This document shows, piece after piece, positions 6,495 to 62,242 of a stretch of 64,000 bases of DNA. Within the stretch, counting starts at the first letter, position 1. Every line of letters starts with the position of its first letter. The stretch covers positions 45,794-109,793 of IMG/VR virus record IMGVR_UViG_3300032287_000839, one strand, 5' to 3'. This DNA is from a virus (Duplodnaviria; Heunggongvirae; Uroviricota; Caudoviricetes). The position numbers and the translations under genes are program-made. The notes beneath the pieces were generated by a model that was not told the DNA's origin, did not search any database, and saw only the letters and a program-made list of their open reading frames with translations.

Positions 6495-6863
6495 TTAGTA
6501 GGGTTGATAGGACTTTTCCTCTATAAACTCAGACCCATACTTTATATTAATTTCTTTTTTAATATGTGCTCTTTTATCATTCAGTAAGTAAACACTTCTG
6601 GCTAGCTGAACAAAGTGATCATCAAATATCTTGTTTCTTTCACATTCTCTTAGTCTATCTTCTACACCCCAAAGCTTTTTATTTACCCAAAGCAACTCAT
6701 CTGTCATAGGATCGTGTAATATCTCAGGTTCAATCACTGTATTTAAATAGTTCTTCTCAGTAAAAACATTCTTAAGCTTATCTTTATCTGTTATATTTAA
6801 AGCTTTGATAGAAAGGATGGTCCATTTGTCCACCACTTCTCCAACACTAACCTCTATCTTCAT
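6495..6863 (-). CDS. hypothetical protein
   Basis: 122-aa ORF, transcribed divergently from the glycosyltransferase gene. No recognisable motif. Confidence 0.5.
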   Translation of the reverse strand: MKIEVSVGEVVDKWTILSIKALNITDKDKLKNVFTEKNYLNTVIEPEILHDPMTDELLWVNKKLWGVEDRLRECERNKIFDDHFVQLARSVYLLNDKRAHIKKEINIKYGSEFIEEKSYQPY

Positions 6864-6872
6864 AAAAATTTA

Positions 6873-6903
6873 TTGTATATTATCCACAAATATACTAACT
6901 TTG
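6873..6903 (+). promoter_or_regulatory. Bacteroidetes-type promoter for the glycosyltransferase gene (TTG, 20 nt, TAACTTTG)
   Basis: The plus strand reads TTATTGTATATTATCCACAAATATACTAACTTTG. The -7 element lies 18 nt upstream of the ATG at 6922. Confidence 0.4.
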
Positions 6904-6921
6904 TTTAAAATAATCAACACA

Positions 6922-9824: not shown

Positions 9825-12800
9825 TTAATTATTTATTAATTGTTTTATATTATTGATTTCTAATTGTTGATTTTTAATAATCTCCTGTTGTTCTTTCATT
9901 CCATTAACAACTACAGCCAATAATTCTGTTTGTGTAATAGCCAACATGTTGAAATTTTTATCTTCAATTATTAACTCTGGTATCAAATCTTGTAACTGCT
10001 GTGCAGAAAAACCTAAGTGAAAAGTTTTATCACCCTTTGATACATGATTATCTGGCAAATCATACTTAAACTTAATTGTATCCATTTGCAATAACTCATT
10101 AAGTCCATAAGTTAATTTAGATACTTCCTTCTTATATCTCATATCTGAAACAGAACCGTAAGTAGCATATAGTGTGTCCATGTAAAACAAGCTACCACCA
10201 CCTATACCGCCATAAATATCTAACCACTGACTCCAATACCCATACCACAAATACTTATATCTACCTTGAAAATATTCTTGCCCAGCCCATTGTAAATTAC
10301 CAGGCGAGTAAATAGATCCAAATGTTACACCATCTGTTGTTCTTACATACTGATCCATATTAGCTGCATAAGGATATGCGTTAGTATTCATGTAATAAAC
10401 CCATCCTCCAAAAGAACCACCTGAAACATTTCTTGTAGCTAATCTATTTGCATTATCTTCCCATCCCCAGGCTACTTGTGTTCCCCAAAAACTTCCACCA
10501 TTAGTGTGCCTAAAGTTTTGTTGAATCCACCAAGATCCTCCTGGTCCATTTGTTCCATTTGCACCAACGTCACCACTATATCTCGCAGTTCCTGCAGGTG
10601 TGTTTGTAAAATCATTGTTCCAAGATCCTGTAGAGCCTGTTTGCTGAATATAATTATTACTATTTAAATATGTAGCACTAGATGCAGCACTCACAGTTTG
10701 AGAACCAATGTTAGCAGTTGTAATAAATTGGAACCAACTATTCCAGCTTCCCACATCGCCATTTCTTGTTCTATAAGAAATTGCAACCCCGCCACCACTA
10801 TATGCAGCATTTAATTGTAAATCATAACTACCACCTGCACTAAATCTAGCTATAGGGCCTGTCCAAGGAGCATTTACAGAATAAGTAAATCCTGTACTGT
10901 TAGTGTCCATAGTATTAGCATCAAGTGTAAAACCTTGATAATACATAATATTAGCTGGCTTACTAGAAACATTACCCCATGCTACACTACCAGCACTACC
11001 TGTAATACTTATACCCCATGTACCAGAAGCAGCTCCTCCAGTTAATGTAGGAGAATAAGAGTTATAATTTGCTGCATTTAAAACTGTATTACCACCGTAT
11101 GCTAATGTTGAACCATTATCAGTTAATGCACTATTACCTATGGTAGTTGCACTTGTAAATTTAGTCATTGTGTTTGTGGTACCTGATACAGCTACAGATG
11201 TACCACTTGTACCTGTTGTTCCGCTAGAACCACTTGTTCCGCTAACTCCAGAAGTACCATTCACTCCTGATGTGCCATTAATTCCAGAGGTACCGTTTAC
11301 TCCTGATGTACCAGAGGTTCCATTAGCTCCTGATGTTCCATTGATTCCTGACGTACCACTAGACCCTGATGTACCAGTTGTTCCTGAAGTTCCATTTATT
11401 CCACTAGTTCCAGCAGTTCCACTTGTACCTGTAGTACCTGATGTTCCTCCTGTAGAAGATGTTCCTCCTGTTCCGTCTGTTCCACTACTACCAGATGTGC
11501 CACCAGTCCCATCAGTTCCAGATGAGCCACTAGTTCCACCAGTGCCTGAAGTTCCTGTAGTACCACTTGTTCCTGGGGTACCACTTGTCCCAGCAGATCC
11601 TGAGGTTCCAGGTGTACCACTAGTACCAGATGTACCTGATTGAGATACAATAGCTATAAATAAAGGATGGTTGTTAGCAAAGTTGGTTGTACCAGTTCCT
11701 GCTGAAGATATCAATGTTACAGGAATAGTCCAATAGTTAGTGCTATTGGTTGGTGTACCTGTTATATCCCAAATTTGATTATTGGCAGAATCATTTTGAT
11801 CTTGTATAGTGATTTGTTGAGTCTCTTGTAATAATGCTAAGAAAATGTCAATATCAATATCATTATCAGTTGTATGATTGATGTTTATTGATGTAGAACT
11901 TATTTGTGTAGCATTATCCCAAATAATATATCCAATACCAGGATCTCCTGATTGTGATGTAGTTTTAGCTTGATAGAAGAATAAGTTGTTTGATATACCA
12001 TTTACACCTGACGTACCACCAGTTCCACTTGTACCTGTGGTTCCAGAAGTGCCATCAGTACCTGAAGTTCCAGTGGTTCCACTTGTTCCTCCTGTGCTAC
12101 TAGTTCCTGATGTACCTGTGGTTCCTGATGTACCATCTGTCCCACTTGTACCACTTGTTCCTCCTGTACCATCAGTGCCTGATGTACCATTAGAACCATC
12201 TGTTCCTGAGGTTCCTGAGGTGCCTGTTGTACCACTGGTGCCACTAGTACCGTCTATACCTGATGTTCCACTAGTTCCATCTATACCACTAGTTCCATTA
12301 CTACCATTAGTTCCACTCGTTCCAGCAGAACCAGTAGTTCCACTTGTACTTGATGTTCCTGAAGATCCTGAACTACCGTTAGAACCTGATGTTCCAGTTG
12401 TGCCTGATGTTCCACTTGTTCCATTAGAACCGCTTATACCAGAGCTACCGCTTGTACCTCTAGTTCCACTAGTTCCGCTTGTCCCACCTGAACCACTAGT
12501 ACCACGAGTCCCACTAGATCCAGATGTGCCTGCAGAGCCTGTTGATCCTGAGGTACCATTTGATCCATGAGTTCCACGTACACCAGAAGAGCCTGAAGAA
12601 CCACTAGTGCCAGAGCTACCAGTTAATCCAGAACTTCCTGAGCTACCACTAGTTCCATTAATTCCAGATGTCCCAGAGGTGCCAGATGTTCCTGAAGTAC
12701 CGTTCACCACAGCAAGTCTAGCATCAATTTTTTCTAATGCTGTCTGTATGCTATCATTAGTATTGATACCTGTATATATAAGGTCAGCACCTTCGTAAAA

Positions 12801-12857
12801 TACGCAAGTGCTATTAAGTATAATTGGACAAGGTTCTGCAGAACAAGTGATGTTCAT
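9825..12857 (-). CDS. collagen-like tail fiber with a C-terminal S74-type intramolecular chaperone (self-cleaving) domain
   Basis: Two long G-X-Y blocks (GTSGTSGTSG...). The C-terminus has the SVSDMRYKKEV motif (Ser/Lys dyad pattern SD.R.K) followed by a coiled-coil tail. The N-terminus carries the conserved fiber-anchor motif GINTNDSIQTALEKIDARL. Confidence 0.85.
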   Translation of the reverse strand: MNITCSAEPCPIILNSTCVFYEGADLIYTGINTNDSIQTALEKIDARLAVVNGTSGTSGTSGTSGINGTSGSSGSSGLTGSSGTSGSSGSSGVRGTHGSNGTSGSTGSAGTSGSSGTRGTSGSGGTSGTSGTRGTSGSSGISGSNGTSGTSGTTGTSGSNGSSGSSGTSSTSGTTGSAGTSGTNGSNGTSGIDGTSGTSGIDGTSGTSGTTGTSGTSGTDGSNGTSGTDGTGGTSGTSGTDGTSGTTGTSGTSSTGGTSGTTGTSGTDGTSGTTGTSGTGGTSGVNGISNNLFFYQAKTTSQSGDPGIGYIIWDNATQISSTSININHTTDNDIDIDIFLALLQETQQITIQDQNDSANNQIWDITGTPTNSTNYWTIPVTLISSAGTGTTNFANNHPLFIAIVSQSGTSGTSGTPGTSGSAGTSGTPGTSGTTGTSGTGGTSGSSGTDGTGGTSGSSGTDGTGGTSSTGGTSGTTGTSGTAGTSGINGTSGTTGTSGSSGTSGINGTSGANGTSGTSGVNGTSGINGTSGVNGTSGVSGTSGSSGTTGTSGTSVAVSGTTNTMTKFTSATTIGNSALTDNGSTLAYGGNTVLNAANYNSYSPTLTGGAASGTWGISITGSAGSVAWGNVSSKPANIMYYQGFTLDANTMDTNSTGFTYSVNAPWTGPIARFSAGGSYDLQLNAAYSGGGVAISYRTRNGDVGSWNSWFQFITTANIGSQTVSAASSATYLNSNNYIQQTGSTGSWNNDFTNTPAGTARYSGDVGANGTNGPGGSWWIQQNFRHTNGGSFWGTQVAWGWEDNANRLATRNVSGGSFGGWVYYMNTNAYPYAANMDQYVRTTDGVTFGSIYSPGNLQWAGQEYFQGRYKYLWYGYWSQWLDIYGGIGGGSLFYMDTLYATYGSVSDMRYKKEVSKLTYGLNELLQMDTIKFKYDLPDNHVSKGDKTFHLGFSAQQLQDLIPELIIEDKNFNMLAITQTELLAVVVNGMKEQQEIIKNQQLEINNIKQLINN
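11195..11660. repeat. collagen-like coding tandem repeat, block 2 (9-nt G-T/S-S units)
   Basis: Encodes (GTS/GSS/GTT)n. Its antisense reads as PV-rich pseudo-ORFs. Confidence 0.8.
12005..12695. repeat. collagen-like coding tandem repeat, block 1
   Basis: Encodes about 230 aa of G-X-Y triplets. Antisense ORFs 11986..12570 and 12607..12798 are artefacts of the repeat. Confidence 0.8.
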
Positions 12858-39659: not shown

Positions 39660-40522
39660 TACTTGTAAGATATTTGAGCAGGTGTAACAATAAATCCACT
39701 AATTAGATGCAAATCAGATCTGTCATCTAGTATATGTCTAACCTTTAAGAACTTAGCTCTTAGAGGTTCTTTCTTATATGATCTTTTTCCATAATCCATA
39801 TTAGCTTGATTTAGAACCTTATCTACAGATAATGACTCACAAGTAGTATTAAACAAAGGTAAGGTTTTATCTTTAACTAATCCCCAGAAAGTATTATATT
39901 GATAGAAATTATCTGACTTGCTATAAATAATAGTTTTACTATCAATATTATATATTGGGTATGTTAGATATTGTTGCAAGTTACGTAAAGGTTTTGGAAC
40001 TAACAATAGCAATCCAGAAGTTTGTTGACCATTATATAAAATAGCCTTATTGAAATAACCATTCACTTCTACAGTAGCATTATCATTATCAAACCCAGTT
40101 GTGCTAGGAAGATAGGTAACTGCTCTGGTGTAATCCTTAACATTCTGAAGGATTTCATCATATGACTGATAGGCAAATGGATATTCTATTACATAAGGCT
40201 CTATATTATCATAATACCTATTATAAATAGTTGAGTCTTTTAAATGTGCCCATATACTACCTGTATCAACAGGTGTATAAGTTATCATAGCTATCTCTGA
40301 TTTGGTAGCTTCTACTATAGGTATTTCTATTTCTGTATGACATCTTCCAGTAGATCGCAATACAACCATAGTGGAACCATTGTCCACATTTAATGAATAT
40401 CCAGCAATAAGTTCTTCCTTAGTTACACCTGTAACCAATGTTTCACCGTATTGATCGATAATATCAAATGGACCTGTTCTAGTTCCAGCTTTTGTTAATT
40501 TTATAAGTATTGCTTTAGCCAT
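39659..40522 (-). CDS. fiber or tail protein (287 aa) sharing its N-terminal domain with the 219-aa protein at 49641..50300
   Basis: Aligned N-termini: L.L.KAG..TGPFDI...V.GV....L.AGY.L.V......VLRSTG.C. Confidence 0.55.
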   Translation of the reverse strand: MAKAILIKLTKAGTRTGPFDIIDQYGETLVTGVTKEELIAGYSLNVDNGSTMVVLRSTGRCHTEIEIPIVEATKSEIAMITYTPVDTGSIWAHLKDSTIYNRYYDNIEPYVIEYPFAYQSYDEILQNVKDYTRAVTYLPSTTGFDNDNATVEVNGYFNKAILYNGQQTSGLLLLVPKPLRNLQQYLTYPIYNIDSKTIIYSKSDNFYQYNTFWGLVKDKTLPLFNTTCESLSVDKVLNQANMDYGKRSYKKEPLRAKFLKVRHILDDRSDLHLISGFIVTPAQISYK

Positions 40523-46036: not shown

Positions 46037-47011
46037 TTAATTTCTTGTCCAACCAGATCTACGAGCTCTATTTGGTAATTCGTACATGTTAAATCTATTA
46101 AGATCATTTTTGATCCTTCTTTGTTTAGTCCAAGGATCTTGTTTCTTAATCTCAATATCAGCCATGATAAACGCTTCTTCAGATAACTGTTTATAATAAG
46201 CAAGCTTTGATTGTATTTGTTGGAATGTTTCATCAGTTAACTGATTAGATAACATCTCAAACACCTTATATTTGATGAAGTGTTCTACATACTCTCTAAT
46301 ACGGTAATTATCAGGAATAAGTTGATTTCCAATAGTATCATATTCTGTAGCATAGAATATCAAATGAACTGTACCATTTCTAAAGTTGGTAACAAATTTG
46401 TTATCTCTAATATCAAATGAATCATAACTAGCTGAGCCAGGAGTGAATTCATGAATTGAAGGTGGTGGAGTGTAAAACTCCCAAGCATTAGTATATTCCA
46501 CATCACAGTTCTTTCTTACAGAGATGTTACCTGGTTTAAGCAAGTATTCATTTTTATAAGATCTAGCTACTGATTGGTTAGTTTTATATACAGCTTGTAT
46601 GATTTCAGGCATACATTGTCCTGAGCAATTATTATCATTGCATACAGGATTAACACAAGGACCTGTTCCTGTAGTAATAGGGCTCACTTGTATTGTTGTT
46701 TGACTAGATGCTTGAGAATAAAAAGAATTAGCTGTTTGAACAGGATAATTAGATGGGATCTCTGTACACATCCAAGCTTCTCTTACAGCATAGAAATTAT
46801 CTGGAAGTCTAGCTTCAAAATCATTTATATGCAAAATCTGTTCAGAGATGACATAAGTTGCTCTACCTAACTTCTTTAAACACTTGTCTAAATAAGTAGG
46901 GAACAATAGATCATCTACTGCACCTGTATCAAAATAACTTTTTAACTCTTCTTTAACAGTTGAATAAACTGGTTGAGGAGAAACAAAGTTGTACTTGTAA
47001 TAATATGACAT
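46037..47011 (-). CDS. hypothetical structural protein (324 aa)
   Basis: ORF contiguous with the tail cluster. Internal Cys cluster GPCVNPVCNDNNCSGQC. Confidence 0.55.
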   Translation of the reverse strand: MSYYYKYNFVSPQPVYSTVKEELKSYFDTGAVDDLLFPTYLDKCLKKLGRATYVISEQILHINDFEARLPDNFYAVREAWMCTEIPSNYPVQTANSFYSQASSQTTIQVSPITTGTGPCVNPVCNDNNCSGQCMPEIIQAVYKTNQSVARSYKNEYLLKPGNISVRKNCDVEYTNAWEFYTPPPSIHEFTPGSASYDSFDIRDNKFVTNFRNGTVHLIFYATEYDTIGNQLIPDNYRIREYVEHFIKYKVFEMLSNQLTDETFQQIQSKLAYYKQLSEEAFIMADIEIKKQDPWTKQRRIKNDLNRFNMYELPNRARRSGWTRN

Positions 47012-47495: not shown

Positions 47496-48215
47496 TTACA
47501 CTTTACTTACTTGATCATCTTTAGCATCTGTTGTTTTATCATCATTAATTCTAAAGTATGTCTGTAGTAACTTTTGTGTCGTTAGTGCTAGCACTTGTTG
47601 TTCTAAATACCCAGGGCAAGCATATTCTTTATCTAATGGGTTTTTGCAATAGTCTTCATCAACAACTACTGGTACTGGTCCACATCCACATTCTGGATAC
47701 ATGATTTCATTTGGTACATCCTCCTCAAAGAAAGCAGCAATTCTCACCGCTTTTAACATTGGATTGCTTACATATAGATATTCATTAGCTATCCAATAGT
47801 AAGTCTGATTTTTGATAATAGGAAGCTGTAATAAGTTTAAATATCTGTTAATTGTAACTTCCTTAAATTTAGTTCCTTGTCCACCCATTGCATTAATAGA
47901 CCAAACACCTTGAATAAGATATTGGTAATTGCCTTCAGAGATACGTGGAATCTTGAACTTAGTTCTTGCCACTTGACAAGGATCTGTATATCCACAACAT
48001 TCAGAGATAGGAACTTCAATAAGTTCTAAGCAAGGAATGGTGGTGAATACAGTATCTGTAGCCCAAAGCTTTCTGAGGTTTGCCTCACGTTTTACTAATA
48101 ATTGTGTGTTGTTTCTGATCTCAGACGCTATCACTCTGTCTGTAATAAGATTATCCGAAGATATGAGTTTAGTCGTACCACGAATATCTGAGACCATTTT
48201 TCTTAATGTTGCCAT
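47496..48215 (-). CDS. hypothetical protein (239 aa)
   Basis: ORF whose stop/start overlaps the upstream gene. Confidence 0.5.
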   Translation of the reverse strand: MATLRKMVSDIRGTTKLISSDNLITDRVIASEIRNNTQLLVKREANLRKLWATDTVFTTIPCLELIEVPISECCGYTDPCQVARTKFKIPRISEGNYQYLIQGVWSINAMGGQGTKFKEVTINRYLNLLQLPIIKNQTYYWIANEYLYVSNPMLKAVRIAAFFEEDVPNEIMYPECGCGPVPVVVDEDYCKNPLDKEYACPGYLEQQVLALTTQKLLQTYFRINDDKTTDAKDDQVSKV

Positions 48216-49465
48216 TATAAATACTGTTTGAATATATTTGTCATTCCTGAGCCTTGCTCTATTAAGAATCCTGTCACCTCAGCTTTAGACATTGTGTGAC
48301 CATTCTTATCATCCCAAGTACTCTTAGCATTAGAGAATGCTGGAATTTGGTAAAATTTAATACCATTGAAGTCATGACTCACTTCATGGTGTTTGTCTCC
48401 TGTGAAGATGTAAAAGTTGTTATGAAAAGACCAACCATCTTTAAACTCCATTGGAAACAATGCTGCTAACTTAGCAGGCTTAATAGCATCTCCGTGGTTA
48501 AACATTAATGCTGAAGATCCATAACTTATGTACTTTCTATACTTAGGAGAGCAATCAAATTGTAATCTACTGATGTTTCTAAAATAAGCTTGTAACCAAG
48601 TGATCATATGCCATCCAGCAAACTCATCATGATTACCTGCTACATATACAACATTTACATTCTCTGCATGCTGTAATAACATTGTAATTACTAAAATCTC
48701 ATGCTCACAGATAAACTTAAATGAATCATGATATGTGTGAGTGTTGGTCTGAGGAGTGCCCTTAGTAGTCATACCAGAGTATTCACTATTAAACTCATCA
48801 GAACCAATGATATAAGTAATATGTTCTAAATTGTTGGAAAGCTTTGCTTGATTAACAATAGTTTCCACCTTATAGATAATGTTACCCAATCTAGCAGAAA
48901 TATCATTATTACCATCTATATCATATTTGTTTAAGTGAGAGTCTTGTTTGTTAATAACTAACATTGCATTTTCCTTACCACTTACAAACGTAGGACTCAT
49001 AATGTCTTGACTTACAGGCTCATATGAAGCTAGAAAGTCTACAAAGCTATCTTGAAATACTTGCTCTGTGGACTTCTTTCCTAACCAAGCTTTTACTTGC
49101 CAGTGTGGATTTCCACCATTTCCCCAGTAGTTCTGTACATATTTAGTTATCTCCCATTTATCTGTATCTATCTTACATTTCTCAATAAGATCATCTAAGC
49201 TCTTTACTTCCTCAGATAAGTTAGCTACTATCTCTCCTGTACCCTTAACTATATCTTCTGTAAATCTAACTATTGTATCTTCCAAATCTGCTATATAATT
49301 CCCTAATTCTGCTTCAATTTCAGCAACCTCTCTCTCTCTAATATCTGCAAGAAGTTCATCAACTTCTGTTTCTGTAATTCCTAGCTTTTCAGCGTAATAC
49401 TTCTTTGATTTCTTCCAGTGTAGCATTTGTTGAAGTTGGTCTAATAGACTTTGGTTTTCAGACAT
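48215..49465 (-). CDS. calcineurin-like metallophosphoesterase with an N-terminal coiled-coil extension
   Basis: Motifs IIGSDEFNS, VAGNHDE (GNH[DE]), FNHGDAIK and FTGDKHHEVSH. The start is set to MSENQ at 49465; the track's upstream extension reads into the intergenic region. Confidence 0.65.
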   Translation of the reverse strand: MSENQSLLDQLQQMLHWKKSKKYYAEKLGITETEVDELLADIREREVAEIEAELGNYIADLEDTIVRFTEDIVKGTGEIVANLSEEVKSLDDLIEKCKIDTDKWEITKYVQNYWGNGGNPHWQVKAWLGKKSTEQVFQDSFVDFLASYEPVSQDIMSPTFVSGKENAMLVINKQDSHLNKYDIDGNNDISARLGNIIYKVETIVNQAKLSNNLEHITYIIGSDEFNSEYSGMTTKGTPQTNTHTYHDSFKFICEHEILVITMLLQHAENVNVVYVAGNHDEFAGWHMITWLQAYFRNISRLQFDCSPKYRKYISYGSSALMFNHGDAIKPAKLAALFPMEFKDGWSFHNNFYIFTGDKHHEVSHDFNGIKFYQIPAFSNAKSTWDDKNGHTMSKAEVTGFLIEQGSGMTNIFKQYL

Positions 49466-49573
49466 ATAGTTAAATTTGGTTAAAATTACTGTAAAGGTAA
49501 GAACTATTTTTGATATTCCCAAAAATATATTAACTAATTTAGTTAATGAAAATAATCAATTTGATTATAAGTT

Positions 49574-49606
49574 AAACAAAAACCCCCAGCCTAGAAAGGC
49601 CAGGGG
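49574..49606 (-). terminator. rho-independent terminator downstream of the 219-aa fiber gene
   Basis: Minus-strand CCCCTGGCC-TTTCTA-GGCTGGGGG forms a 9-bp stem with two G-U pairs, followed by UUUUUGUUU. Confidence 0.45.
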
Positions 49607-49640
49607 ATGCCCTGTAAACCAACAAACAGGGTTTTTAAGA

Positions 49641-50300
49641 TTATATACAGTTAGATACAACGTACACTATGTAACCATAGCCACCTATTGTAACAATATC
49701 TCCACTATTGAATGATCCTGCAGGCACACCATTAACTGTTAAAGCAACAGGTGAGTTCAAACGAGAAGTTAAGCTCGTAGACCATGTACCTGAGATAAAC
49801 GAAGGTGTACTAGAGTTTGCAGATTGTCCAATAGATAATCCAAGAATACCTCCAGATAATGCAGCTCCTGCTACAGCACTTGTTGTACAAGTGTTAGTAG
49901 GATAACCGTCTGCACTGATAGAACCAACTGTAACTGACTCTAATGGAGCCATGCTAGCTACAATTGTGAAGGATGATGAAAACACATTATAAGCTAAAGT
50001 TAACGTCCTTAATACAGTTGTAGTAGTTGTAGTAGTTGATGTGGATGTAGATGATGTAGATGTAGTTGTTGTTGTTGGAGCACCAGATATATCTAAATAC
50101 AAAGATCTATCACACACTCCTGTAGATCTAACTAATATTTGTGTAGCATCGTCAGGTACAGGTGTAAGATAATATCCAGCCACTAATGCAGCTCTAGATA
50201 CACCAGTTACTATAGGTGTTGTAAAGCCATCTGAATTTGAGTAAATATCAAAAGGACCTACATCAATCCCTGCTAAGGTTAAGGTTATTAATACTGTCAT
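49641..50300 (-). CDS. fiber protein (219 aa): N-domain shared with the 287-aa protein, then a poly-Thr/Ser linker and a C-terminal domain
   Basis: N-terminus MTVLITLTLAGIDVGPFDI...LVRSTGVC. Linker TTTTTSTSSTSTSTTTTTTT. Confidence 0.6.
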   Translation of the reverse strand: MTVLITLTLAGIDVGPFDIYSNSDGFTTPIVTGVSRAALVAGYYLTPVPDDATQILVRSTGVCDRSLYLDISGAPTTTTTSTSSTSTSTTTTTTTVLRTLTLAYNVFSSSFTIVASMAPLESVTVGSISADGYPTNTCTTSAVAGAALSGGILGLSIGQSANSSTPSFISGTWSTSLTSRLNSPVALTVNGVPAGSFNSGDIVTIGGYGYIVYVVSNCI

Positions 50301-50311
50301 TTAATTTTGAT

Positions 50312-50554
50312 TTAACATTGATTTATAATAGCACATAATTGTGCTGTTAACGTAGGATTAGCTGCAATAGCGTCTAATATAGATTCAGCATTTAGTTTGT
50401 TGTCAATCTTTTCAAGAGCGACAGTTAAGCTATTGTTTGTGTTAATTCCTGAGTTAGGAAGATTTGGTCCAACGTAACATATGGTGTTTGAGTTAGTGAC
50501 ACCAGGGGGATGATAATAAGCATCCCAACATTGCATTCCAGGTAAACAAGACAT
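50312..50554 (-). CDS. 80-aa Cys-containing mini-protein consisting only of the conserved fiber N-terminal anchor motif
   Basis: ICYVGPNLPNSGINTNNSLTVALEKIDNKL matches the N-termini of the collagen-like fiber and the tail-collar fiber. Confidence 0.5.
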   Translation of the reverse strand: MSCLPGMQCWDAYYHPPGVTNSNTICYVGPNLPNSGINTNNSLTVALEKIDNKLNAESILDAIAANPTLTAQLCAIINQC

Positions 50555-50573
50555 TTATTGTTGATTTAAAATA

Positions 50574-51725
50574 TTAAGGAATATACATAATGTAATAAGC
50601 AGCAAGTACAGGTTGGATGTTAGGATGTCCTTGTCCATTACCAGTAGTAGCGTTACTTACACCTGTTGTTACAGTGATGCCTGTTACAGCACTTGCTGTA
50701 GTAAGTGTTGCTAATGAACCAGCTCTAGAAGCATCTCCAGCACCTCCAGGTTGCACAACTCCTTCAAAAGCATGACTGTGTCCTGGATCATTTACAGTGG
50801 ATAATGCTGTAGCAGTGTGTGTATGACTAGGAAGTTGAGGAATAGTTAATCCTACTAAGTTTGTACCAGTGGTGTCTCCTATAGAATAATTAGGATTACC
50901 TGTGTACGCAGGATCTACATTAAAGTTCAATGCTCCACCAGGAACACCTTGAATAGCTCCTACACCCACTCTTCCTCTCTTATCAGGAGTGCCATTAGCA
51001 CCATTGCATAAATACACTTTATCCCATCCTAAGCTTTGTATACCAGCTCCTGTACCATCAAAGTTAGTCAATGGACCATAGTATTCTACAACTGTATAAG
51101 GAACCATTTTGGTGTACTGTTGTGTACTACCGCTTGATTGTTCATCTAAATAAGCTTGAATAAGACCATTTAACTCATCAAGACTAACATAGTTATCTTG
51201 TACATTTAATGTTAAACTGGTTAAGTTAGCTGAGGTTTGACAAAGCCTATTGATTGTAGCTTGTAAAATTGCAACAGTTCCACTATCAGGTAAAACTCCT
51301 ACAAGACAGTTTACATTATATGTTCCTTGTAATCTACCTAATTCAAATTGAAGAACACTCACCTCATCCTGTACATAACAGATACTTCTTGTAAGAGCAG
51401 TTAGGTACTCAGGAACAGTGTATATACAATCTGGGGTTACTGGTAAAAATAGTTCAACAACTGGACAAATAATCCCTGGATTGATAGCAACATTAATTCC
51501 TGTACCATCTAAACATGAGGTTAAGTAATCTATTAATCTTTCCTCAACAATAGCTAATGAATCTCCTGTTTGAATTTCTAAAGCTAGTGAATCTGGACCT
51601 GTATATCTAACACATTGGTCAGATACCGTCTCAACACATCCATTAAAACAAGCATCACAAGATCTTGTTGGTGTAATGTTAGAAGTTGTACTTGTAGTAG
51701 TGGTAGTTGTAATATCTCCTGCCAT
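50574..51725 (-). CDS. tail fiber with a C-terminal phage tail-collar domain
   Basis: C-terminal motifs LPSHTHTATALS...GHSHAFEG...GNGQGHPNIQPVLAAYYIMY (tail-collar signature HTHT...H.H...H.N.QP...YI). N-terminal poly-Thr, then the anchor motif CVRYTGPDSLALEIQTGDSLAIVEERL. Confidence 0.75.
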   Translation of the reverse strand: MAGDITTTTTTSTTSNITPTRSCDACFNGCVETVSDQCVRYTGPDSLALEIQTGDSLAIVEERLIDYLTSCLDGTGINVAINPGIICPVVELFLPVTPDCIYTVPEYLTALTRSICYVQDEVSVLQFELGRLQGTYNVNCLVGVLPDSGTVAILQATINRLCQTSANLTSLTLNVQDNYVSLDELNGLIQAYLDEQSSGSTQQYTKMVPYTVVEYYGPLTNFDGTGAGIQSLGWDKVYLCNGANGTPDKRGRVGVGAIQGVPGGALNFNVDPAYTGNPNYSIGDTTGTNLVGLTIPQLPSHTHTATALSTVNDPGHSHAFEGVVQPGGAGDASRAGSLATLTTASAVTGITVTTGVSNATTGNGQGHPNIQPVLAAYYIMYIP

Positions 51726-51733
51726 TTTATAAT

Positions 51734-52000
51734 TTATTTATGAATTAACAACTTCACTCTACTAGCAATCATTGATATTGTGAAATGTTCACAATAGTTA
51801 ATGTTACAAGCTTTGTATGTTAATATTTGTTTGTAATTTATTAAGTCACCTACTACTTGTGTTGGTATATAATAGTTCACAGAGAATACAATATTATTAT
51901 ACTGGATAACTGCCCAGTAGGTTAATCTATTATCTATATCAGTTAGTAATGCAGGTATACTAGCACACTCGATACAATTCGTTAATCTTGGATATAACAT
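51734..52000 (-). CDS. hypothetical Cys-containing small protein (88 aa)
   Basis: ORF-track entry. Its 5' end overlaps the small Cys-rich ORF at 51960..52112. Confidence 0.35.
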   Translation of the reverse strand: MLYPRLTNCIECASIPALLTDIDNRLTYWAVIQYNNIVFSVNYYIPTQVVGDLINYKQILTYKACNINYCEHFTISMIASRVKLLIHK

Positions 52001-52112
52001 TTTTAATTCTTTGAGTTGCTTGTTTTAACTTGTTATTACAAGCTGAACATAAGCCATTAATTAATTGACATCCGCAGCCTACCCTTAGGCCACAATCTCT
52101 ACAGTTTGCCAT
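51960..52112 (-). CDS. 50-aa Cys-rich, zinc-ribbon-like mini-ORF (MANCRDCGLRVGCGCQLINGLCSACNN...)
   Basis: Hand-translated. The ATG lies 1 nt after the stop of the upstream gene. The CxxC...CGC...CxxC pattern is the only basis for the call. Confidence 0.3.
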   Translation of the reverse strand: MANCRDCGLRVGCGCQLINGLCSACNNKLKQATQRIKNVISKINELYRVC

Positions 52113-52113
52113 A

Positions 52114-52671
52114 CTAATGAAAATTATTTATGTAGTTGTTACCAGAACAACCACAGTTGTTGGTTAAGAAATAATCTAATTGTCTGTCTGCCTGAATATA
52201 TAATGTATTAGCTGTGTCTATAGCACAGTTATTAGCTGCTGCAATAGATCCTTGTATCATAAAATTGATACTGCTTAATACTACCTTTGATTGTGTTCTG
52301 ATAGCCAAATCACATTCCATCATATCTAACTTCATGAATGCATTGTCAAACTTCTCTTGTATTCTAGCAGTACGCATTATGTTTTTTTCTACATAATTTG
52401 TTAATGCTGGGTCCACTGTATATTTTAAAAAATACACACCATCTGGAAGAGGTTGATAAACTCCAAATGGACTAAGTCCTAATATTACAGAGTTATATAC
52501 ATTAAAGTCGTTAGGAGCGAAAGGAATAAGAACAGGATCTACAAAACCAGGAATAGTAATAGACATAGTTGGTGATGTTACTACTGGTGGATCTGTATCA
52601 TAAACTGATGTATCAGCCACACCTAATGTATTAACATCAAAAGTATTAATTACTAAAAAATCTAAAGTCAT
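52114..52671 (-). CDS. hypothetical structural protein (185 aa)
   Basis: ORF. Confidence 0.5.
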   Translation of the reverse strand: MTLDFLVINTFDVNTLGVADTSVYDTDPPVVTSPTMSITIPGFVDPVLIPFAPNDFNVYNSVILGLSPFGVYQPLPDGVYFLKYTVDPALTNYVEKNIMRTARIQEKFDNAFMKLDMMECDLAIRTQSKVVLSSINFMIQGSIAAANNCAIDTANTLYIQADRQLDYFLTNNCGCSGNNYINNFH

Positions 52672-52690
52672 GGTTATTTAAAATAATAAT

Positions 52691-52727
52691 GCCAGAGGAT
52701 TTGAGAAATATCCTCTCACCCTCTGGC
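52691..52727 (-). terminator. hairpin (GCCAGAGG ... CCTCTGGC, with a nested GAGGAT/ATCCTC) followed by AUUAUUAUUUU on the minus strand
   Basis: An 8-bp perfect inverted repeat downstream of the 379-aa gene. Confidence 0.35.
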
Positions 52728-52757
52728 ATAGGTTATATGATAACTACCTTCTTTCTA

Positions 52758-53897
52758 TTAAGGAATCAAAGTAGTTGTTGTTGAAGTACTAGGCCAAACA
52801 GTAGTTGTAGTACTAGTTGTGCTTGTGATAGGACCGCTATCATCAGTTACTAAACCTAACGCTGGCTCTAAGATATCCAAGAAATCTTGAGTATCTGCTT
52901 GAGGGATAGCTAAGATAACTGTAGAATCTTCTTTGATATAGTCACCCCAATTGTACGCTGATCTGTCATACTCGTTAAACTTGATGTACAAAGTATCGTA
53001 GGTAGTACCATCAGATACCCAGCTTTCAAAGTTTTCGTTGTATCCAACCATTCTGTACAAGTGCTTCAAATAACCAGCTTGGTAGCTATAGAAGTTCTTC
53101 TCTAATTGGATGATCTCTGCAGATGTACCTGATACATAAGAACTACGTTGAGTAATTACTACATCAGCAACATTGTTACAAGGATCAGCAACGATAAAGT
53201 CAGCAGTTGTAGCTGGACCAGAGAAAATGAATGTACGGAACCACATACGGTCGTACTCCCAAGGGAATGCAGCCACATCACATGGTTGTCCATAAACAGT
53301 CAAAGGCTTACCACTAATAACTAATTTAGCATTCTGATCGTTACCAATTCTTTGGAACTGATAGAAAGTGTCAAAGCTAATGTTGTCTGGGTTGTTACCT
53401 GGAGCTTTTTGACGTAACTTTAAGATCAATTCATCGATCAAAGCAGGAACATTAACATCAGTACAAGGGTCTTCACCACATTCTAAACATGGAGCATTCA
53501 CAGTTACACTACGAGTGAAACCGTTGAAATACAATGTGTTAATGTAGCTAGAGAAAGCACGTAAAGTTAAAGTGATAACTTCACCTGGTTTTACAGAGAA
53601 ATTACCAACTTCAGTTACTTGGTTAGCAGCAACAGGATTTCCTGTAACTTTATACCATTCAGTAACACGCTCTGAAGCAATTTTGTCAGAACGTTTAGTA
53701 CCTTGTAAGTACGTATTTGTTCTACCTTGTGCAACGTAGAAATAAGGAGCAGCAGCGATATTACCTGCTGTAGCAACAGCGTAAGTGTTCAAATAGATAC
53801 CTACTTGACCAGCTGTTAAATTCTGTGTTGATCCAGAGCTAGGGATTGTATTTCCTACTGGTACAACAAAGAGGGTGGTTAATGAAAAATCCGCCAT
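52758..53897 (-). CDS. structural protein (379 aa) with a Thr-rich C-terminus; possible major tail or ring component
   Basis: ORF followed by a hairpin terminator. C-terminus ITSTTSTTTTVWPSTSTTTTLIP. Confidence 0.5.
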   Translation of the reverse strand: MADFSLTTLFVVPVGNTIPSSGSTQNLTAGQVGIYLNTYAVATAGNIAAAPYFYVAQGRTNTYLQGTKRSDKIASERVTEWYKVTGNPVAANQVTEVGNFSVKPGEVITLTLRAFSSYINTLYFNGFTRSVTVNAPCLECGEDPCTDVNVPALIDELILKLRQKAPGNNPDNISFDTFYQFQRIGNDQNAKLVISGKPLTVYGQPCDVAAFPWEYDRMWFRTFIFSGPATTADFIVADPCNNVADVVITQRSSYVSGTSAEIIQLEKNFYSYQAGYLKHLYRMVGYNENFESWVSDGTTYDTLYIKFNEYDRSAYNWGDYIKEDSTVILAIPQADTQDFLDILEPALGLVTDDSGPITSTTSTTTTVWPSTSTTTTLIP

Positions 53898-59129: not shown

Positions 59130-59660
59130 CTAATCTAATTTGTTAAGGAATGAATCATTTATGAACCTAAAACTTCTAATTGGAGCTAAGTCAGTCAGTG
59201 TAACTTGTTGAACTTCAACACCCCACTTTCTAGCTTCAACTCTAACTTTCTTAGTAAGAGTGTTATCTAGTTCACTATCTGTACACTCATCCATAGTCAT
59301 AGACATAATGACATTTTTTATAATACTTTGAGACATATCTGACAGGGCATCCTGAGCATCATACACCTCTAATAAGAATGTCTTCACGTCTGATATCTTG
59401 TATTTAATAACCCCCTTGACAACTATGTTCTGTTTATCAAGAGTGTATAAAGATTGAGCATTTAGACTTAATGTAGTTATTACTACATGTTGGTCTATCA
59501 CCTCATCAAAAAGAGGAATTTTTAAATGCATTCCAGGTTTGAGCACTGCTGAGAATCTACCAAACCTTAATAGTACAGCTTCTTCATAATGTCTGATAAT
59601 AATAACTGGGGTTAGTTGCAACCACCAGTTAGTTATTATCTCAATCAGTTTATCAAACAT
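59130..59660 (-). CDS. SPFH/band-7 (stomatin/prohibitin/HflK-like) domain protein lacking the C-terminal coiled coil
   Basis: Residues LLRFGRFSAVLKPGMHLKIPLFDEV...TMDECTDSELDNTLTKKVRVEARKWGVEVQQVTLTDLAP align by eye with bacterial QmcA/HflK SPFH cores (ERFGRY..L.PGL....PF.D...MELDE.L..R......L......WG..V....I.D..PP). Confidence 0.7.
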   Translation of the reverse strand: MFDKLIEIITNWWLQLTPVIIIRHYEEAVLLRFGRFSAVLKPGMHLKIPLFDEVIDQHVVITTLSLNAQSLYTLDKQNIVVKGVIKYKISDVKTFLLEVYDAQDALSDMSQSIIKNVIMSMTMDECTDSELDNTLTKKVRVEARKWGVEVQQVTLTDLAPIRSFRFINDSFLNKLD

Positions 59661-59662
59661 AT

Positions 59663-62242
59663 TTATTTGTTTTTGTTAGCTCTGCCCTTTGCATTCTCTT
59701 TAGCAACAGCAAGATCGTTCGCTTGGTTTTCTCTTTCCACCTGTAGCTTCTCTCTTTCTAATGCCATCTTTTCAGCTTCCTTTCTATTCTTATTTTGAAT
59801 ATCAGTCATTTTAAGTTGATAGTCTTTAGCAGCACTATCCTGATCATATTGTAACTTGCTGATTTCCAATGCATCTGGAACATCATTCATGTCTATATCT
59901 GGAAGACCTCCTTTAGATTCAGCCATGATTGTAGCAATCTCAACCTTATTAATTCTATCTAATTCTTTTTGGTAATCATCATTAGCAATTTTCTCTTGAT
60001 GCATTTGTTGAGCTTGTTGTAATGCAGCTTCAGCTTGTTGTTGCTGTTGTTCCAATTGTTGCTGTTGTTGTTGTATCTTTTGATCCTCCATCTGCTGTTG
60101 TCTATCTTTAAGTGTTTTGAACACCTTCTTCATTTGACGTACAGAGTTAGTGCTGTAAAGCTCAATGATATCATGTAAGCTTCCACCATTCTGAAGAACA
60201 GCTTGAGATAATCCTCTAATTTCGTTAAACATTTTCTGATCTTCTGGTCTGTTAGTCAAGAACACTTTAAGATCACGGAACTTAAGATCAGAACCATTAA
60301 CAGAAACAAATGCAGATTCTCCCTCAGATGTAATATAAGAAATAGTAGATTGTGGTTTAGAACTTTCTACATATAAAGCTGCATCAATAATAGATTGGTA
60401 TAATTGACCAAGAACATATTCATGAGCAGCAAATAAAGGCTCAGTTTGAGAGTAGGATTGTTGTATAGCAGTGTTTGTACCTGTAGCAGATTCACTGGCT
60501 GAAATAGATCCTAAACGCTGTTTAGACATACCTACTAACTCCCAACACTCTTGTTTCAATTGCATAGCTAGATTATATCTAGATTGAATCTCTTGCGTAC
60601 GTGTAAGGTCAATATCTCTAAACTGGTTAAATGATGATGGGCTCTTTAAGTTCTCAGGAGAGTCATCAATAAACATCACCCCTCTGTTACGTGCTTCCAT
60701 TTCCCATATATCAAGAGCATCTTGTGCATCTCCATCTTTAGGAATAGGAATGTGTCTAATAGATGTTAAATACACCTTACCCACCTCTTTCTCAAGAAGC
60801 TTATAAAGCTGATTCATACATACATTATATAACACCTGGAAAGGCTTCATTAAATCTACTAAAGACTTAGCCTCTGTATTCTTCACCTCATGAACTAATC
60901 CTATAATAGGACAATAGTTCAATAATTTAAACGGCTTGATATTATAAATATCTGGACCAATCTTGTATCCTTGATACCATTGGTTAATCCATCCCCACTC
61001 TAATGATTGCTGTGTAGGAACAGTTCCTGATTTATAGTTTTCATCAACAAGCATAGATTGCTCATTGCCCATCTCATCTAAATAGATTAATTTGCCAATC
61101 TTCTTCTTAGAGATCCAATAGGTTCTAACCACAACATATTTGTAACCAAAACTACTAACGTTTGACGTTAGCCCTAAGAAATCCTGAAGACCATCGTTAT
61201 TCTCCTTCATTTCAGATTCAATGATCATTCTAGTTTGTAGAACAAGAGGATCAAATGTATCATATTGAACTGAGTCTTGACCTGGAACAGCATTAGGATT
61301 GCCTAAGTTAGACTCACGCACATTGATCAAACCATAGTCTTGTAATGAACTACGTAAGTGATCTATTTCTTCTTTCTCTAAATCAGGGAATGTTTCAATA
61401 ATTTCAGATAATTCCATCACCTGTACAATACCAGCAGCATAAGCTCCTTGTGCTCTACCTGTAGTGTCTGAAATATATTTTCTATCTGGAGTGGTTAAAA
61501 AGAATGTATTTTTTGGGTTAGCCACCTCAACATTAAATCCAAGCTTAGAGTTATCCTCATATATATGATAGAACTCTCTAGCTGAAATCAATAAGTCTCT
61601 GAAGGCATCTTCTGATTTCTCCTTAAGAACAAACTCAGCTTTCTGTGATGTAAGAACGTGGTTAGCCCACTTCTCAGCTACAGATGTATAGCTATCAAGC
61701 TCATCTCTCACTTCCTCAAGAGTCATTTGTTGTAATTCCTCAGGCTCCATTTCTTGTCCATGCATAGCTGCATTTTCTTGAATCTTCTGTTTAGCTTGAG
61801 ATATTACATAGTCTTGAAGAAGTTGAGTTTTAAACTCAAGCTCTGCAGATTGACTATCATCATCAAAAGCCTTCACACGGAAAGCATCTGGTCTTTTAGA
61901 AATCTCTCCCACTAATTCGTTAAGAGGAGTGGTAATAATAGAATACATTTTTACATATGCTGGAAGCTGTAAGTCTGCTGTAAGTACATCAGTAAAGCTT
62001 CTCACCTGTGGTTCTTGGTAAAAGTCTTCCATGCGTAGGATTCCCTTAACCAAGTCATAGTTTTTAACAAATGTATCTCTGTTCTTCACATACTCAGCAT
62101 AAGCCTTGTTTGCAAAGTAGTCCATTGTGTTTTTAATCCAACTCTCATCTTGCTTCTCCTTCTCAGTCTTGAACTGATCAGGGAAGATGTTTAAATATGC
62201 ATACCTTATGGTAGCGTCTTTTGTATACCTTATAATTGCCAT
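59663..62242 (-). CDS. candidate portal protein (859 aa) with a C-terminal Q-rich coiled coil
   Basis: Sits immediately downstream of the large terminase. Size is typical of crAss-like or large podovirus portals. Confidence 0.5.
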   Translation of the reverse strand: MAIIRYTKDATIRYAYLNIFPDQFKTEKEKQDESWIKNTMDYFANKAYAEYVKNRDTFVKNYDLVKGILRMEDFYQEPQVRSFTDVLTADLQLPAYVKMYSIITTPLNELVGEISKRPDAFRVKAFDDDSQSAELEFKTQLLQDYVISQAKQKIQENAAMHGQEMEPEELQQMTLEEVRDELDSYTSVAEKWANHVLTSQKAEFVLKEKSEDAFRDLLISAREFYHIYEDNSKLGFNVEVANPKNTFFLTTPDRKYISDTTGRAQGAYAAGIVQVMELSEIIETFPDLEKEEIDHLRSSLQDYGLINVRESNLGNPNAVPGQDSVQYDTFDPLVLQTRMIIESEMKENNDGLQDFLGLTSNVSSFGYKYVVVRTYWISKKKIGKLIYLDEMGNEQSMLVDENYKSGTVPTQQSLEWGWINQWYQGYKIGPDIYNIKPFKLLNYCPIIGLVHEVKNTEAKSLVDLMKPFQVLYNVCMNQLYKLLEKEVGKVYLTSIRHIPIPKDGDAQDALDIWEMEARNRGVMFIDDSPENLKSPSSFNQFRDIDLTRTQEIQSRYNLAMQLKQECWELVGMSKQRLGSISASESATGTNTAIQQSYSQTEPLFAAHEYVLGQLYQSIIDAALYVESSKPQSTISYITSEGESAFVSVNGSDLKFRDLKVFLTNRPEDQKMFNEIRGLSQAVLQNGGSLHDIIELYSTNSVRQMKKVFKTLKDRQQQMEDQKIQQQQQQLEQQQQQAEAALQQAQQMHQEKIANDDYQKELDRINKVEIATIMAESKGGLPDIDMNDVPDALEISKLQYDQDSAAKDYQLKMTDIQNKNRKEAEKMALEREKLQVERENQANDLAVAKENAKGRANKNK

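Follow-up and report, generated by a model that had tools for sequence, protein, structure and literature searches.

The structural gene block within a 64,000 nucleotide (nt) stretch of viral DNA (IMG/VR record IMGVR_UViG_3300032287_000839, positions 45,794 to 109,793; hereafter the window, meaning the whole stretch analysed) encodes three proteins that open with a common N-terminal module: a 383 amino acid (aa) fibre, an 80 aa protein encoded by the next open reading frame (ORF), and a 1010 aa collagen-like fibre encoded elsewhere in the window. This module is probably the constant, trimeric virion-attachment end of a modular fibre system, with the 80 aa protein as its minimal form. An earlier note on this DNA had described a shared N-terminal module in these genes; all three ORFs exist as it described them, the collagen-like gene that it cited being the 1010 aa ORF, and the relationship is borne out by significant profile–profile alignments. 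The span that it had singled out, 49641-51725, does hold the 383 and 80 aa genes, but it also includes a 219 aa ORF, which lacks the module.

The copies fall into three classes: class A is the 80 aa family, class B comprises the N-termini of the collagen-type fibres, and class C those of the 383 aa family. About 130 related contigs were surveyed overall; 80 related viral contigs were collected around the 80 aa ORF and 46 contigs carried a collagen-type N-terminus, and 19 full-length homologues of the 80 aa protein were available. By BLASTP, the 80 aa protein and the N-terminus of the collagen-like fibre are 50% identical over 38 aa (E=2e-8). The latter is 31% identical to the 383 aa protein over 35 aa, a marginal match (E=9e-4), and the 80 and 383 aa proteins gave no BLASTP match to each other. 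A profile of the 19 homologues, compared with the 743 six-frame segments of the window, matched the collagen-like fibre with E=9e-8; its second match was the 383 aa protein, at the correct location, with E=0.075 only. Profile–profile comparison, a check that the earlier note had set beforehand, was significant for every pair. By hhalign, classes A and B were aligned with 98.4% probability (E=7e-15, 38 columns), A and C with 94.8% (E=5e-8, 69 columns) and B and C with 85.4% (E=6e-6), while control comparisons of the A and C profiles with 13 other gene families of the block gave probabilities of 3% or less (E>=0.016). Searched across the 64 kb, a joint core profile found exactly three copies, all of which belonged to its training set, and the next match had E=0.1. 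Because the A–C alignment pairs residues 7-78 of the 80 aa protein with residues 21-91 of the 383 aa protein, the 80 aa protein corresponds to the entire N-terminal domain of the collar fibre and not to a 30-residue motif.

The module begins with a lead-in that contains Cys; next come a short beta element (V-x-Y-x-G-P/x-N-L-P-x-x-G-I-x-T-x-D) and, after it, an amphipathic helix (S-L-x-x-A-L-E-K-I-D-x-x-L). The strict motif written out in the earlier note is present in the 80 aa and collagen-like proteins but not in the class C copy (CVRYTGPDSLALEIQTGDSLAIVEERL), which is recognizable by profiles only, and the Cys with which that motif began is out of register between copies. No Pfam-A family corresponds to the module. 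No PHROGs family does so either, single members giving only E=0.002-0.05 against unnamed families and class B giving no match. Among PDB sequences, neither the 80 aa family profile nor the 383 aa protein found a meaningful match for the module. It appears to be a previously undescribed domain family of a familiar type. An 88 aa ORF (51734-52000, CIECASIPALLTDIDNRL) was considered as a fourth copy and rejected (hhalign probability 0.7% over 13 columns).

The sequences attached to the module are highly exchangeable. The class A slot holds 55 distinct proteins across the relatives. Nearly half of these (26/55) are stand-alone forms of 80-110 aa, many with a poly-Thr end; 10, of 183-337 aa, have an additional domain joined on by a poly-Thr linker, and 16 pass straight into GGGG and collagen repeats, reaching up to 1099 aa with a Peptidase_S74 end. 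The remaining three are cut by a contig end. In 46 related loci, class B residues 1-48 are kept at 58-87% identity and the rest of the protein is replaced, the distal part being collagen, a 'GYIFQNG..PGQPVKLGG' fibre of more than 2000 aa, or other or shorter forms. These 48 residues are so well conserved even where the protein encoded next to them, of 1642 aa in the window, is only 25-30% identical. Extra small variants of the module are found beside class B genes, one of 131 aa and one of 213 aa, the latter with poly-Thr and a small domain.

In a search of 1.84 billion representative proteins, a 42-column core profile matched 955 clusters with E<=1e-3, of which 91 had E<=1e-10. Of the 150 best clusters, 149 have the start of the module among residues 1-40, and protein lengths range from 59 to 1782 aa. 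Pfam searches of ten long matches revealed Phage_Tail_Tip, a DUF5122 beta-propeller and a Fibritin_C-like segment. Across the family the distal parts are collagen with S74, collar/HxH, beta-propeller, tail-tip, poly-Thr with a small domain, or nothing. A constant N-terminal unit before interchangeable distal fibre parts, as the earlier note proposed, is thus seen in the class A slot, in the class B exchanges and in the wider protein set, and the combination expected of a virion anchor, a conserved N-terminus joined to unrelated, exchangeable distal domains in related phages, is present here.

The same note suggested that several fibres compete for one docking site. The pattern of modularity is that of an anchor or adaptor domain, but competition for a single site is not borne out. 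Each of the three paralogous classes is marked by invariant residues particular to it and keeps to one place in the genome, and the classes are found side by side within single genomes: A and B are found together in at least five contigs as well as in the window, and class C always adjoins class A. Three conserved, co-resident classes therefore argue for separate positions, and separate sockets or layers would fit at least as well as one shared site.

Poly-Thr/Ser tracts recur in the region. In the window they form the leader of the 383 aa protein (51666-51725, minus strand), the middle of the 219 aa protein (50016-50075, minus strand) and the C-terminal end of a 379 aa protein (52758-52835, minus strand). 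In several relatives (L035, L048, L070 and others) poly-Thr is the extreme C-terminus of stand-alone class A proteins (e.g. ...CLPTTTTTTTLL), and proteins of 59-74 aa in the 1.84 billion set consist of the module and poly-Thr only. The tracts may be linkers, glycosylation sites or something else.

The 80 aa ORF is a real, conserved gene under selection. Its product comprises a Cys-containing N-terminal stretch (MSCLPGMQC..AYYHP), a core (residues 19-56, nt 50387-50500, YVGPNLPNSGINTNNSLTVALEKIDNKL) and a helical tail in which neither C74 nor C80 varies. The 19 full-length homologues, which reach as low as about 32% tblastn identity, are 79-94 aa long and keep both ends as well as the length. 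In every locus covering the region the gene lies directly downstream of the collar fibre gene. Against five relatives, the ratio of non-synonymous to synonymous substitution rates (dN/dS) is 0.16-0.25 at dS 0.6-1.5. The ORF had been described as containing almost nothing else; it is essentially the module alone, but the wording is imprecise in that the first 18 and the last 25 residues are also conserved, the latter aligning with residues 66-91 of the 383 aa protein. The tail with C74 and C80 is specific to class A and is not present in the collagen forms, so the stand-alone form is not merely a truncated collagen gene.

The plug and adaptor roles that the earlier note had offered for a stand-alone anchor are both conceivable. 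Another origin that had been put forward, a remnant of a recombined fibre, is rejected on these data. It is very improbable that the ORF is either unexpressed or a decaying 5' fragment left behind when recombination removed a fibre gene: a full collagen fibre with this N-terminus does take the same slot in some relatives, but the full-length homologues, the 26 stand-alone variants with conserved length and ends, the class-specific tail, the fixed position and the low dN/dS at dS up to 1.5 all speak against decay. Read-through fusion of the ORF with its neighbours has no support, as the frames differ and an in-frame TAA directly precedes the ATG. A role as an adaptor specific to the 219 aa protein is also unlikely, since in several relatives class A is followed by the homologue of a 435 aa protein with no 219-like gene.

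The class C module has the pattern C-x2-C-x3-C-x7-C-V-R-Y-T-G ... I-Q-T-G-D-S-L-A-I-V-E-E-R-L, its core lying at residues 33-70 (nt 51516-51629) of the 383 aa protein, and the N-terminus is conserved across the family. In the 383 aa protein a poly-Thr leader is followed by the module, about 100 residues of long helices, and a C-terminal collar/HxH domain with a hypervariable loop. It has 1925 homologues, named 'microcystin-dependent protein' by the Joint Genome Institute (JGI), and its family profile matched a long tail fibre (8kec, E=0.004) and the C-terminal domain of T4 gp10 among PDB sequences. The Pfam Collar model (PF07484) gave no match to the protein at E<=0.1. The C-terminal half nevertheless resembles phage tail collar/MdpB-like proteins (PF07484; T4 gp10/gp12-type) in its PDxRGR and HxH motifs and NIQP...Y.I end; this likeness concerns the distal domain and not the shared module. 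Within the collar domain a hypervariable, indel-rich stretch (50620-50830, minus strand; columns about 320-420 of alignment A3) is flanked by the invariant HxH motifs on one side and by the conserved TGIT...NIQP..YYIMYIP end on the other, as would be expected of a receptor-contacting loop. In the AlphaFold2 (AF2) model, residues 40-170 have predicted local distance difference test (pLDDT) scores of 76-91 and the confident part spans residues 40-200; short strands at 40-56 lead into a helix at 57-73, the equivalent of the 'ALEKID' segment, and then into long helices. The collar domain is not confidently modelled.

The class B module heads a fibre in which collagen (G-T-S) repeats, a non-collagen insert, more collagen and a C-terminal domain are followed by a Peptidase_S74 intramolecular chaperone. 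The Collagen and Peptidase_S74 matches are both above the curated Pfam cut-offs, identifying a collagen-like phage fibre with an S74 chaperone. The 1010 aa gene lies directly after the 1642 aa gene, and the same is true of nearly all class B genes in the relatives.

A Pfam scan and gene order identify the window as the structural block of a crAss-like phage that is as yet uncultured. It contains the capsid, portal, ring protein 1 (R1) and ring protein 2 (R2) genes of the Crassvirales structural module in their conserved order, and the order of the capsid, portal and ring genes agrees with that in Bacteroides phage crAss001. Among 50,697 phage records, the fibre region (blastn) and the 80 aa protein (tblastn) found zero matches, and the single match of the capsid protein was Leptolyngbya phage Lbo-JY46, with 26% identity. 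Cultured phages are all distant at both DNA and protein level, and there is therefore no annotation to borrow. A scan of a genome collection with the class B module gave three matches, all in contigs of metagenome-assembled genomes, two binned as Sediminibacterium (L131, L132) and one as Rubrivivax (L133). One of the two Sediminibacterium (Chitinophagaceae) contigs, at 112 kb, is about as long as a complete phage genome. The Sediminibacterium binning gives a weak hint of a freshwater Bacteroidota host, and could be an artefact of binning. Sediminibacterium and other Chitinophagaceae are candidate hosts.

Every relative that covers the locus has the capsid gene followed by genes for proteins of 322, 243, 379 and 185 aa, then a 47-57 aa Cys-rich ORF, an 88-108 aa ORF, the class C fibre, the class A gene and 0-3 variable genes. 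These are followed, usually, by a 219-like gene and then by the 435 aa gene, R2, an IHF-like gene, R1 and the muzzle protein. Genes flanking the fibre cassette are 65-100% identical to those of the window across the relatives. Within the cassette, identity to the window is 44-63% for the class C fibre and 32-83% for class A in relatives other than the nearest, L005, in which the values are 94 and 95%. The cassette is a hotspot of diversity, as expected of host-recognition proteins. In the window the 383, 80 and 219 aa genes form a tightly packed unit on the minus strand, with intergenic gaps of 19 and 11 nt. The unit is closed by a hairpin and T-run, the sole terminator-like site within 49300-52800 (Table 1).

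Table 1. Coordinates of the module copies and associated features within the 64,000 nt window
Feature	Position	Strand	Evidence or description
1010 aa collagen-like fibre	9825..12857	-	Pfam Collagen E=7.6e-43; Peptidase_S74 E=2.5e-8
Class B module, residues 1-50 of the 1010 aa fibre, MNITCSAEPCPIILNSTCVFYEGADLIYTGINTNDSIQTALEKIDARL	12708..12857	-	BLASTP E=2e-8; profile E=9e-8
Ring protein 1 (R1)	46037-47011		Pfam CrAss_Ring_1 E=5.5e-9
Ring protein 2 (R2)	47496-48215		Pfam CrAss_Ring_2 E=3e-19
Terminator-like hairpin and T-run	49583..49606	-	10-bp stem, 7 GC pairs; 35 nt past the stop of the 219 aa ORF
219 aa ORF, last gene of the 383/80/219 unit	49641..50300	-	No match to the A or C profiles
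80 aa ORF, whole protein corresponding to the module	50312..50554	-	19 full-length homologues; hhalign significant vs B and C
383 aa fibre	50574..51725	-	PHROG tail fibre families E=5e-16 and 8e-15 (C-terminal half)
Class C module, residues 21-91 of the 383 aa fibre	51453..51665	-	hhalign vs A E=5e-8, vs B E=6e-6
185 aa protein, candidate homologue of crAss001 THA (gp38)	52114..52671	-	hhalign vs gp38 E=1.2e-3
Crass-type capsid protein, 517 aa	56141-57694		Pfam Crass_capsid E=1.6e-26
P22-like portal	59663-62242		Pfam P22_portal E=1e-14

The sole solved virion in the group is that of crAss001, in which fibre N-termini dock both at the tail hub and in capsid pockets (PMC10172136). Its tail hub, built from two THA subunits and one small THB subunit and stabilized by disulfides, takes up the first 26 residues of gp22, a trimeric fibre (Bayfield et al. 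2023, PMC10172136). Head fibres occupy the hexon pockets through residues 1-38 of the trimer gp21 (HFT) and residues 1-58 of the dimer gp29 (HFD) (PMC10172136). In the window, the 185 aa protein encoded upstream of the fibre cassette is a candidate THA. Its family aligns with gp38 (THA) over 64 collinear C-terminal columns, a weak match (E=1.2e-3) that is the top one of 12 crAss001 proteins; on the same scale, the Pfam-confirmed pairs R2–gp40 and R1–gp43 give 2.4e-4 and 5.9e-4. The protein is in the syntenic position and matches a PHROG 'virion structural protein' family (E=1e-6), and its family profile found no match among PDB sequences. Two Cys-rich ORFs of 50 and 88 aa (51734-52112, minus strand), which overlap by 41 nt and are kept separate in nearly all relatives (47-57 and 88-108 aa), occupy the place of the small hub protein THB, to which they have no detectable similarity.

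The three genes open with paralogous copies of one small N-terminal domain that, on the reading that we favour, would as a trimer fix a fibre to the particle and leave the distal part free to be exchanged. Class C belongs to the collar/HxH receptor-binding fibre, whose gene comes immediately after the hub-like genes; the slot next to it is that of class A, and class B is part of a fibre encoded after the cargo genes. The three classes would probably serve three distinct sockets or layers of one apparatus, placed on the fibre-docking hub of the tail. In this scheme the class A position would be filled by the 80 aa protein, as a conserved structural protein that has no distal domain. In some relatives the exposed C-terminus of class A is extended by a poly-Thr linker and a small domain, and in others a collagen fibre joins the core of the module directly, in place of the helical tail. 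Homology, modularity, conservation, selection and gene order are observed; the trimeric state, the attachment function, the tail-hub location and the presence of the module in virions are all features that we infer. Collagen triple helices are homotrimeric, as are S74 intramolecular chaperones and HxH collar fibres, and the module is for this reason most likely trimeric. Both the module and the proteins encoded upstream of it are rich in Cys, some of it conserved; the invariant residues are C3, C9, C74 and C80 in class A, C5, C10 and C18 in class B, and C23, C26, C30 and C38 in class C. The tail hub is favoured because the unit follows a THA-like gene, because the distal domains are like those of tail fibres and because of the conserved Cys residues.

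Several points weigh against this interpretation. By hhalign, the A, B and C profiles have no detectable similarity to the N-termini of crAss001 gp22, gp21 and gp29. The AF2 monomer of the 80 aa protein, built with the 19 homologues, is poor (mean pLDDT 56; predicted helices at 42-53, 56-65 and 67-79). Foldseek comparison of the 383 aa model with the PDB returned nothing with E<8.9, and PDB sequence searches with the module also returned nothing. The THA assignment of the 185 aa protein is weak (E=1e-3), and no homologue of THB (gp39) was found by hhalign against crAss001 proteins. The anchor role and virion placement of the module are predicted from sequence, and the 80 aa product is likewise a predicted virion protein. 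By analogy with crAss001, in which the head fibres are small proteins with N-terminal anchors, a capsid location may be regarded as a live alternative, and a pure trimerization role would also explain the position of the module before collagen.

A capsid location would mean that the module binds the hexon pockets of a T=9 crAss capsid, the 80 aa protein being a minimal decoration or pocket filler. We regard this as unlikely, though it is the rival to be taken most seriously. In gp21 (97 aa) and gp29 (122 aa) an anchor is joined to a small domain, which resembles the stand-alone forms of 80-119 aa and the poly-Thr forms of 183-337 aa; most crassvirus groups are without homologues of gp21 and gp29, for which unknown proteins may substitute (PMC10172136). 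The cassette is within the capsid-to-tail gene block, and the putative auxiliary capsid protein of 379 aa also has a poly-Thr end. Set against this, hhalign of the three class profiles with gp21 and gp29 gave 2% probability or less, the unit is placed after the THA-like gene and not beside the capsid gene, and what follows the module is typical of tail fibres (collar/HxH, Peptidase_S74, Phage_Tail_Tip and collagen fibres 1000-2000 aa long).

It is less probable still that the module is only a foldon-like or V-domain-like nucleus for folding and trimerization, which registers three chains, for example at the start of collagen, with no docking function. Bacterial collagens are known to have N-terminal trimerization domains; the module lies directly before GGGG and collagen in many class A and B proteins, and its conserved ALEKID segment is predicted to be helical. 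Purifying selection would not, however, be expected to keep a free trimerization domain of 80 aa, with no chain attached for it to trimerize, at the same locus in dozens of phages. The collagen fibres already have their own C-terminal S74 chaperone and the collar fibre its own long helices, and the conservation of the module, far above that of the attached fibres, argues for a conserved external partner.

Similarly improbable is a hetero-oligomeric arrangement in which the 80 aa protein co-assembles with the N-terminal domain of the 383 aa protein, as a mixed or stacked trimer, or acts as a THB-like hub subunit and so forms part of the socket. The whole of the 80 aa protein aligns with residues 21-91 of the 383 aa protein, their genes lie side by side at every locus, neither C74 nor C80 varies, and in crAss001 neighbouring hubs are linked by the C-terminal segment of a small second hub subunit (PMC10172136). 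The class A module also heads collagen fibres with S74, though, and these are necessarily homotrimers; the 80 aa protein has no similarity to gp39, and the Cys-rich ORFs of 47-57 and 88-108 aa are already in the THB position.

A more specific form of the fibre-attachment reading is speculative, and we would give it only limited credence. The module would be a disulfide-locked docking domain that has diverged into three orthogonal classes, with a separate socket of the crAss-type tail collar for each, and the anchor-only protein would be a deliberate 'blank' that completes the collar and leaves its position fibre-free. If so, lineages could switch a fibre position on or off by adding or trimming the 3' end of one gene, and the position could be re-armed with collagen, a lectin-like domain or a propeller.

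In the 219 aa protein the first 75 residues constitute a second shared module, after which come a poly-Thr linker and a C-terminal domain that varies. This second module is unrelated to the first: residues 1-75 (50076-50300, minus strand) resemble residues 5-72 (40307-40510, minus strand) of a 287 aa ORF (39659-40522), the two N-termini being 42% identical (E=8e-12). In the relatives its approximately 75 residues head proteins of 85-832 aa, usually with a poly-Thr linker and a variable domain next. Between the fibre cassette and R2, the 435 aa protein (48215-49522, minus strand) has no Pfam match, contains motifs that by eye are metallophosphoesterase-like (VYVAGNHDEF, FNHGD, GDKHH), and is 64-95% identical in most relatives and 27-31% in some. 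A protein with an SPFH/Band 7 domain (59130-59660, minus strand; Pfam E=5e-26), encoded between the portal and scaffold-like genes, is unusual in a phage head module. In the cargo region, downstream of the muzzle gene, a single ORF of 3808 aa (17928-29354, minus strand) precedes the 1642 aa ORF, whose product is 25-30% identical between phages with capsid proteins more than 94% identical. Just beyond the class B fibre cassette, on the opposite strand, lies a gene for a 726 aa two-domain glycosyltransferase (GT1 and GT9 heptosyltransferase-like; 6805-8985, plus strand), with homologues in equal relative position and orientation in several relatives (L109, L119, L123, L130).

crAss-like phages are abundant, yet the rules of fibre attachment are known from crAss001 alone. 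The module provides a sequence handle by which genes for fibres or decorations can be recognized across a large freshwater lineage of uncultured crAss-like phages, and defines a recombination boundary behind which receptor-binding parts are swapped. It could be used for annotating hypothetical proteins, for predicting host-range cassettes and for designing chimeric fibres.

In comparison with the gp22/hub system of crAss001, the phage described here belongs to the same virus order and follows the same logic of gene neighbourhood, with hub genes and then ring proteins. In both, a trimeric fibre would be held by a short N-terminal segment; the crAss001 hub is disulfide-rich and the module here is Cys-rich. 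The two differ in that the gp22 segment is 26 residues long without Cys, and the module a domain of 40-70 residues; here there are three paralogous classes and a stand-alone form, and the fibre genes lie after the hub genes, in contrast to crAss001, in which they follow the portal gene. Comparison of the A, B and C profiles with gp22 residues 1-150 gave hhalign probabilities of 1.8% or less. The head fibre proteins gp21 and gp29 are alike in having an N-terminal anchor, of 38-58 residues, and a small distal domain, and their sizes match the stand-alone and short fused forms of class A. Unlike them, the module here also heads fibres of 1000-2000 aa with tail-fibre hallmarks; against gp29, class C reached at most 0.3% by hhalign, and gp21 was not among the top matches of any class.

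Anchors of a similar kind are well known in podoviruses, in the N-terminal domain of the P22/Sf6/HK620 tailspikes, the N-terminus of T7 gp17, and the anchor-branch tailspike systems of Klebsiella and K1-5-like phages. These share with the present system a constant N-terminal module, a recombination boundary behind it, hypervariable distal domains and several fibres per virion, and differ from it in fold family and sequence. None of these systems is known to have a conserved gene for the anchor by itself, and the conserved anchor-only gene is in this respect unusual. If its product is in the virion, it would be a simple natural example of a docking position occupied without a fibre.

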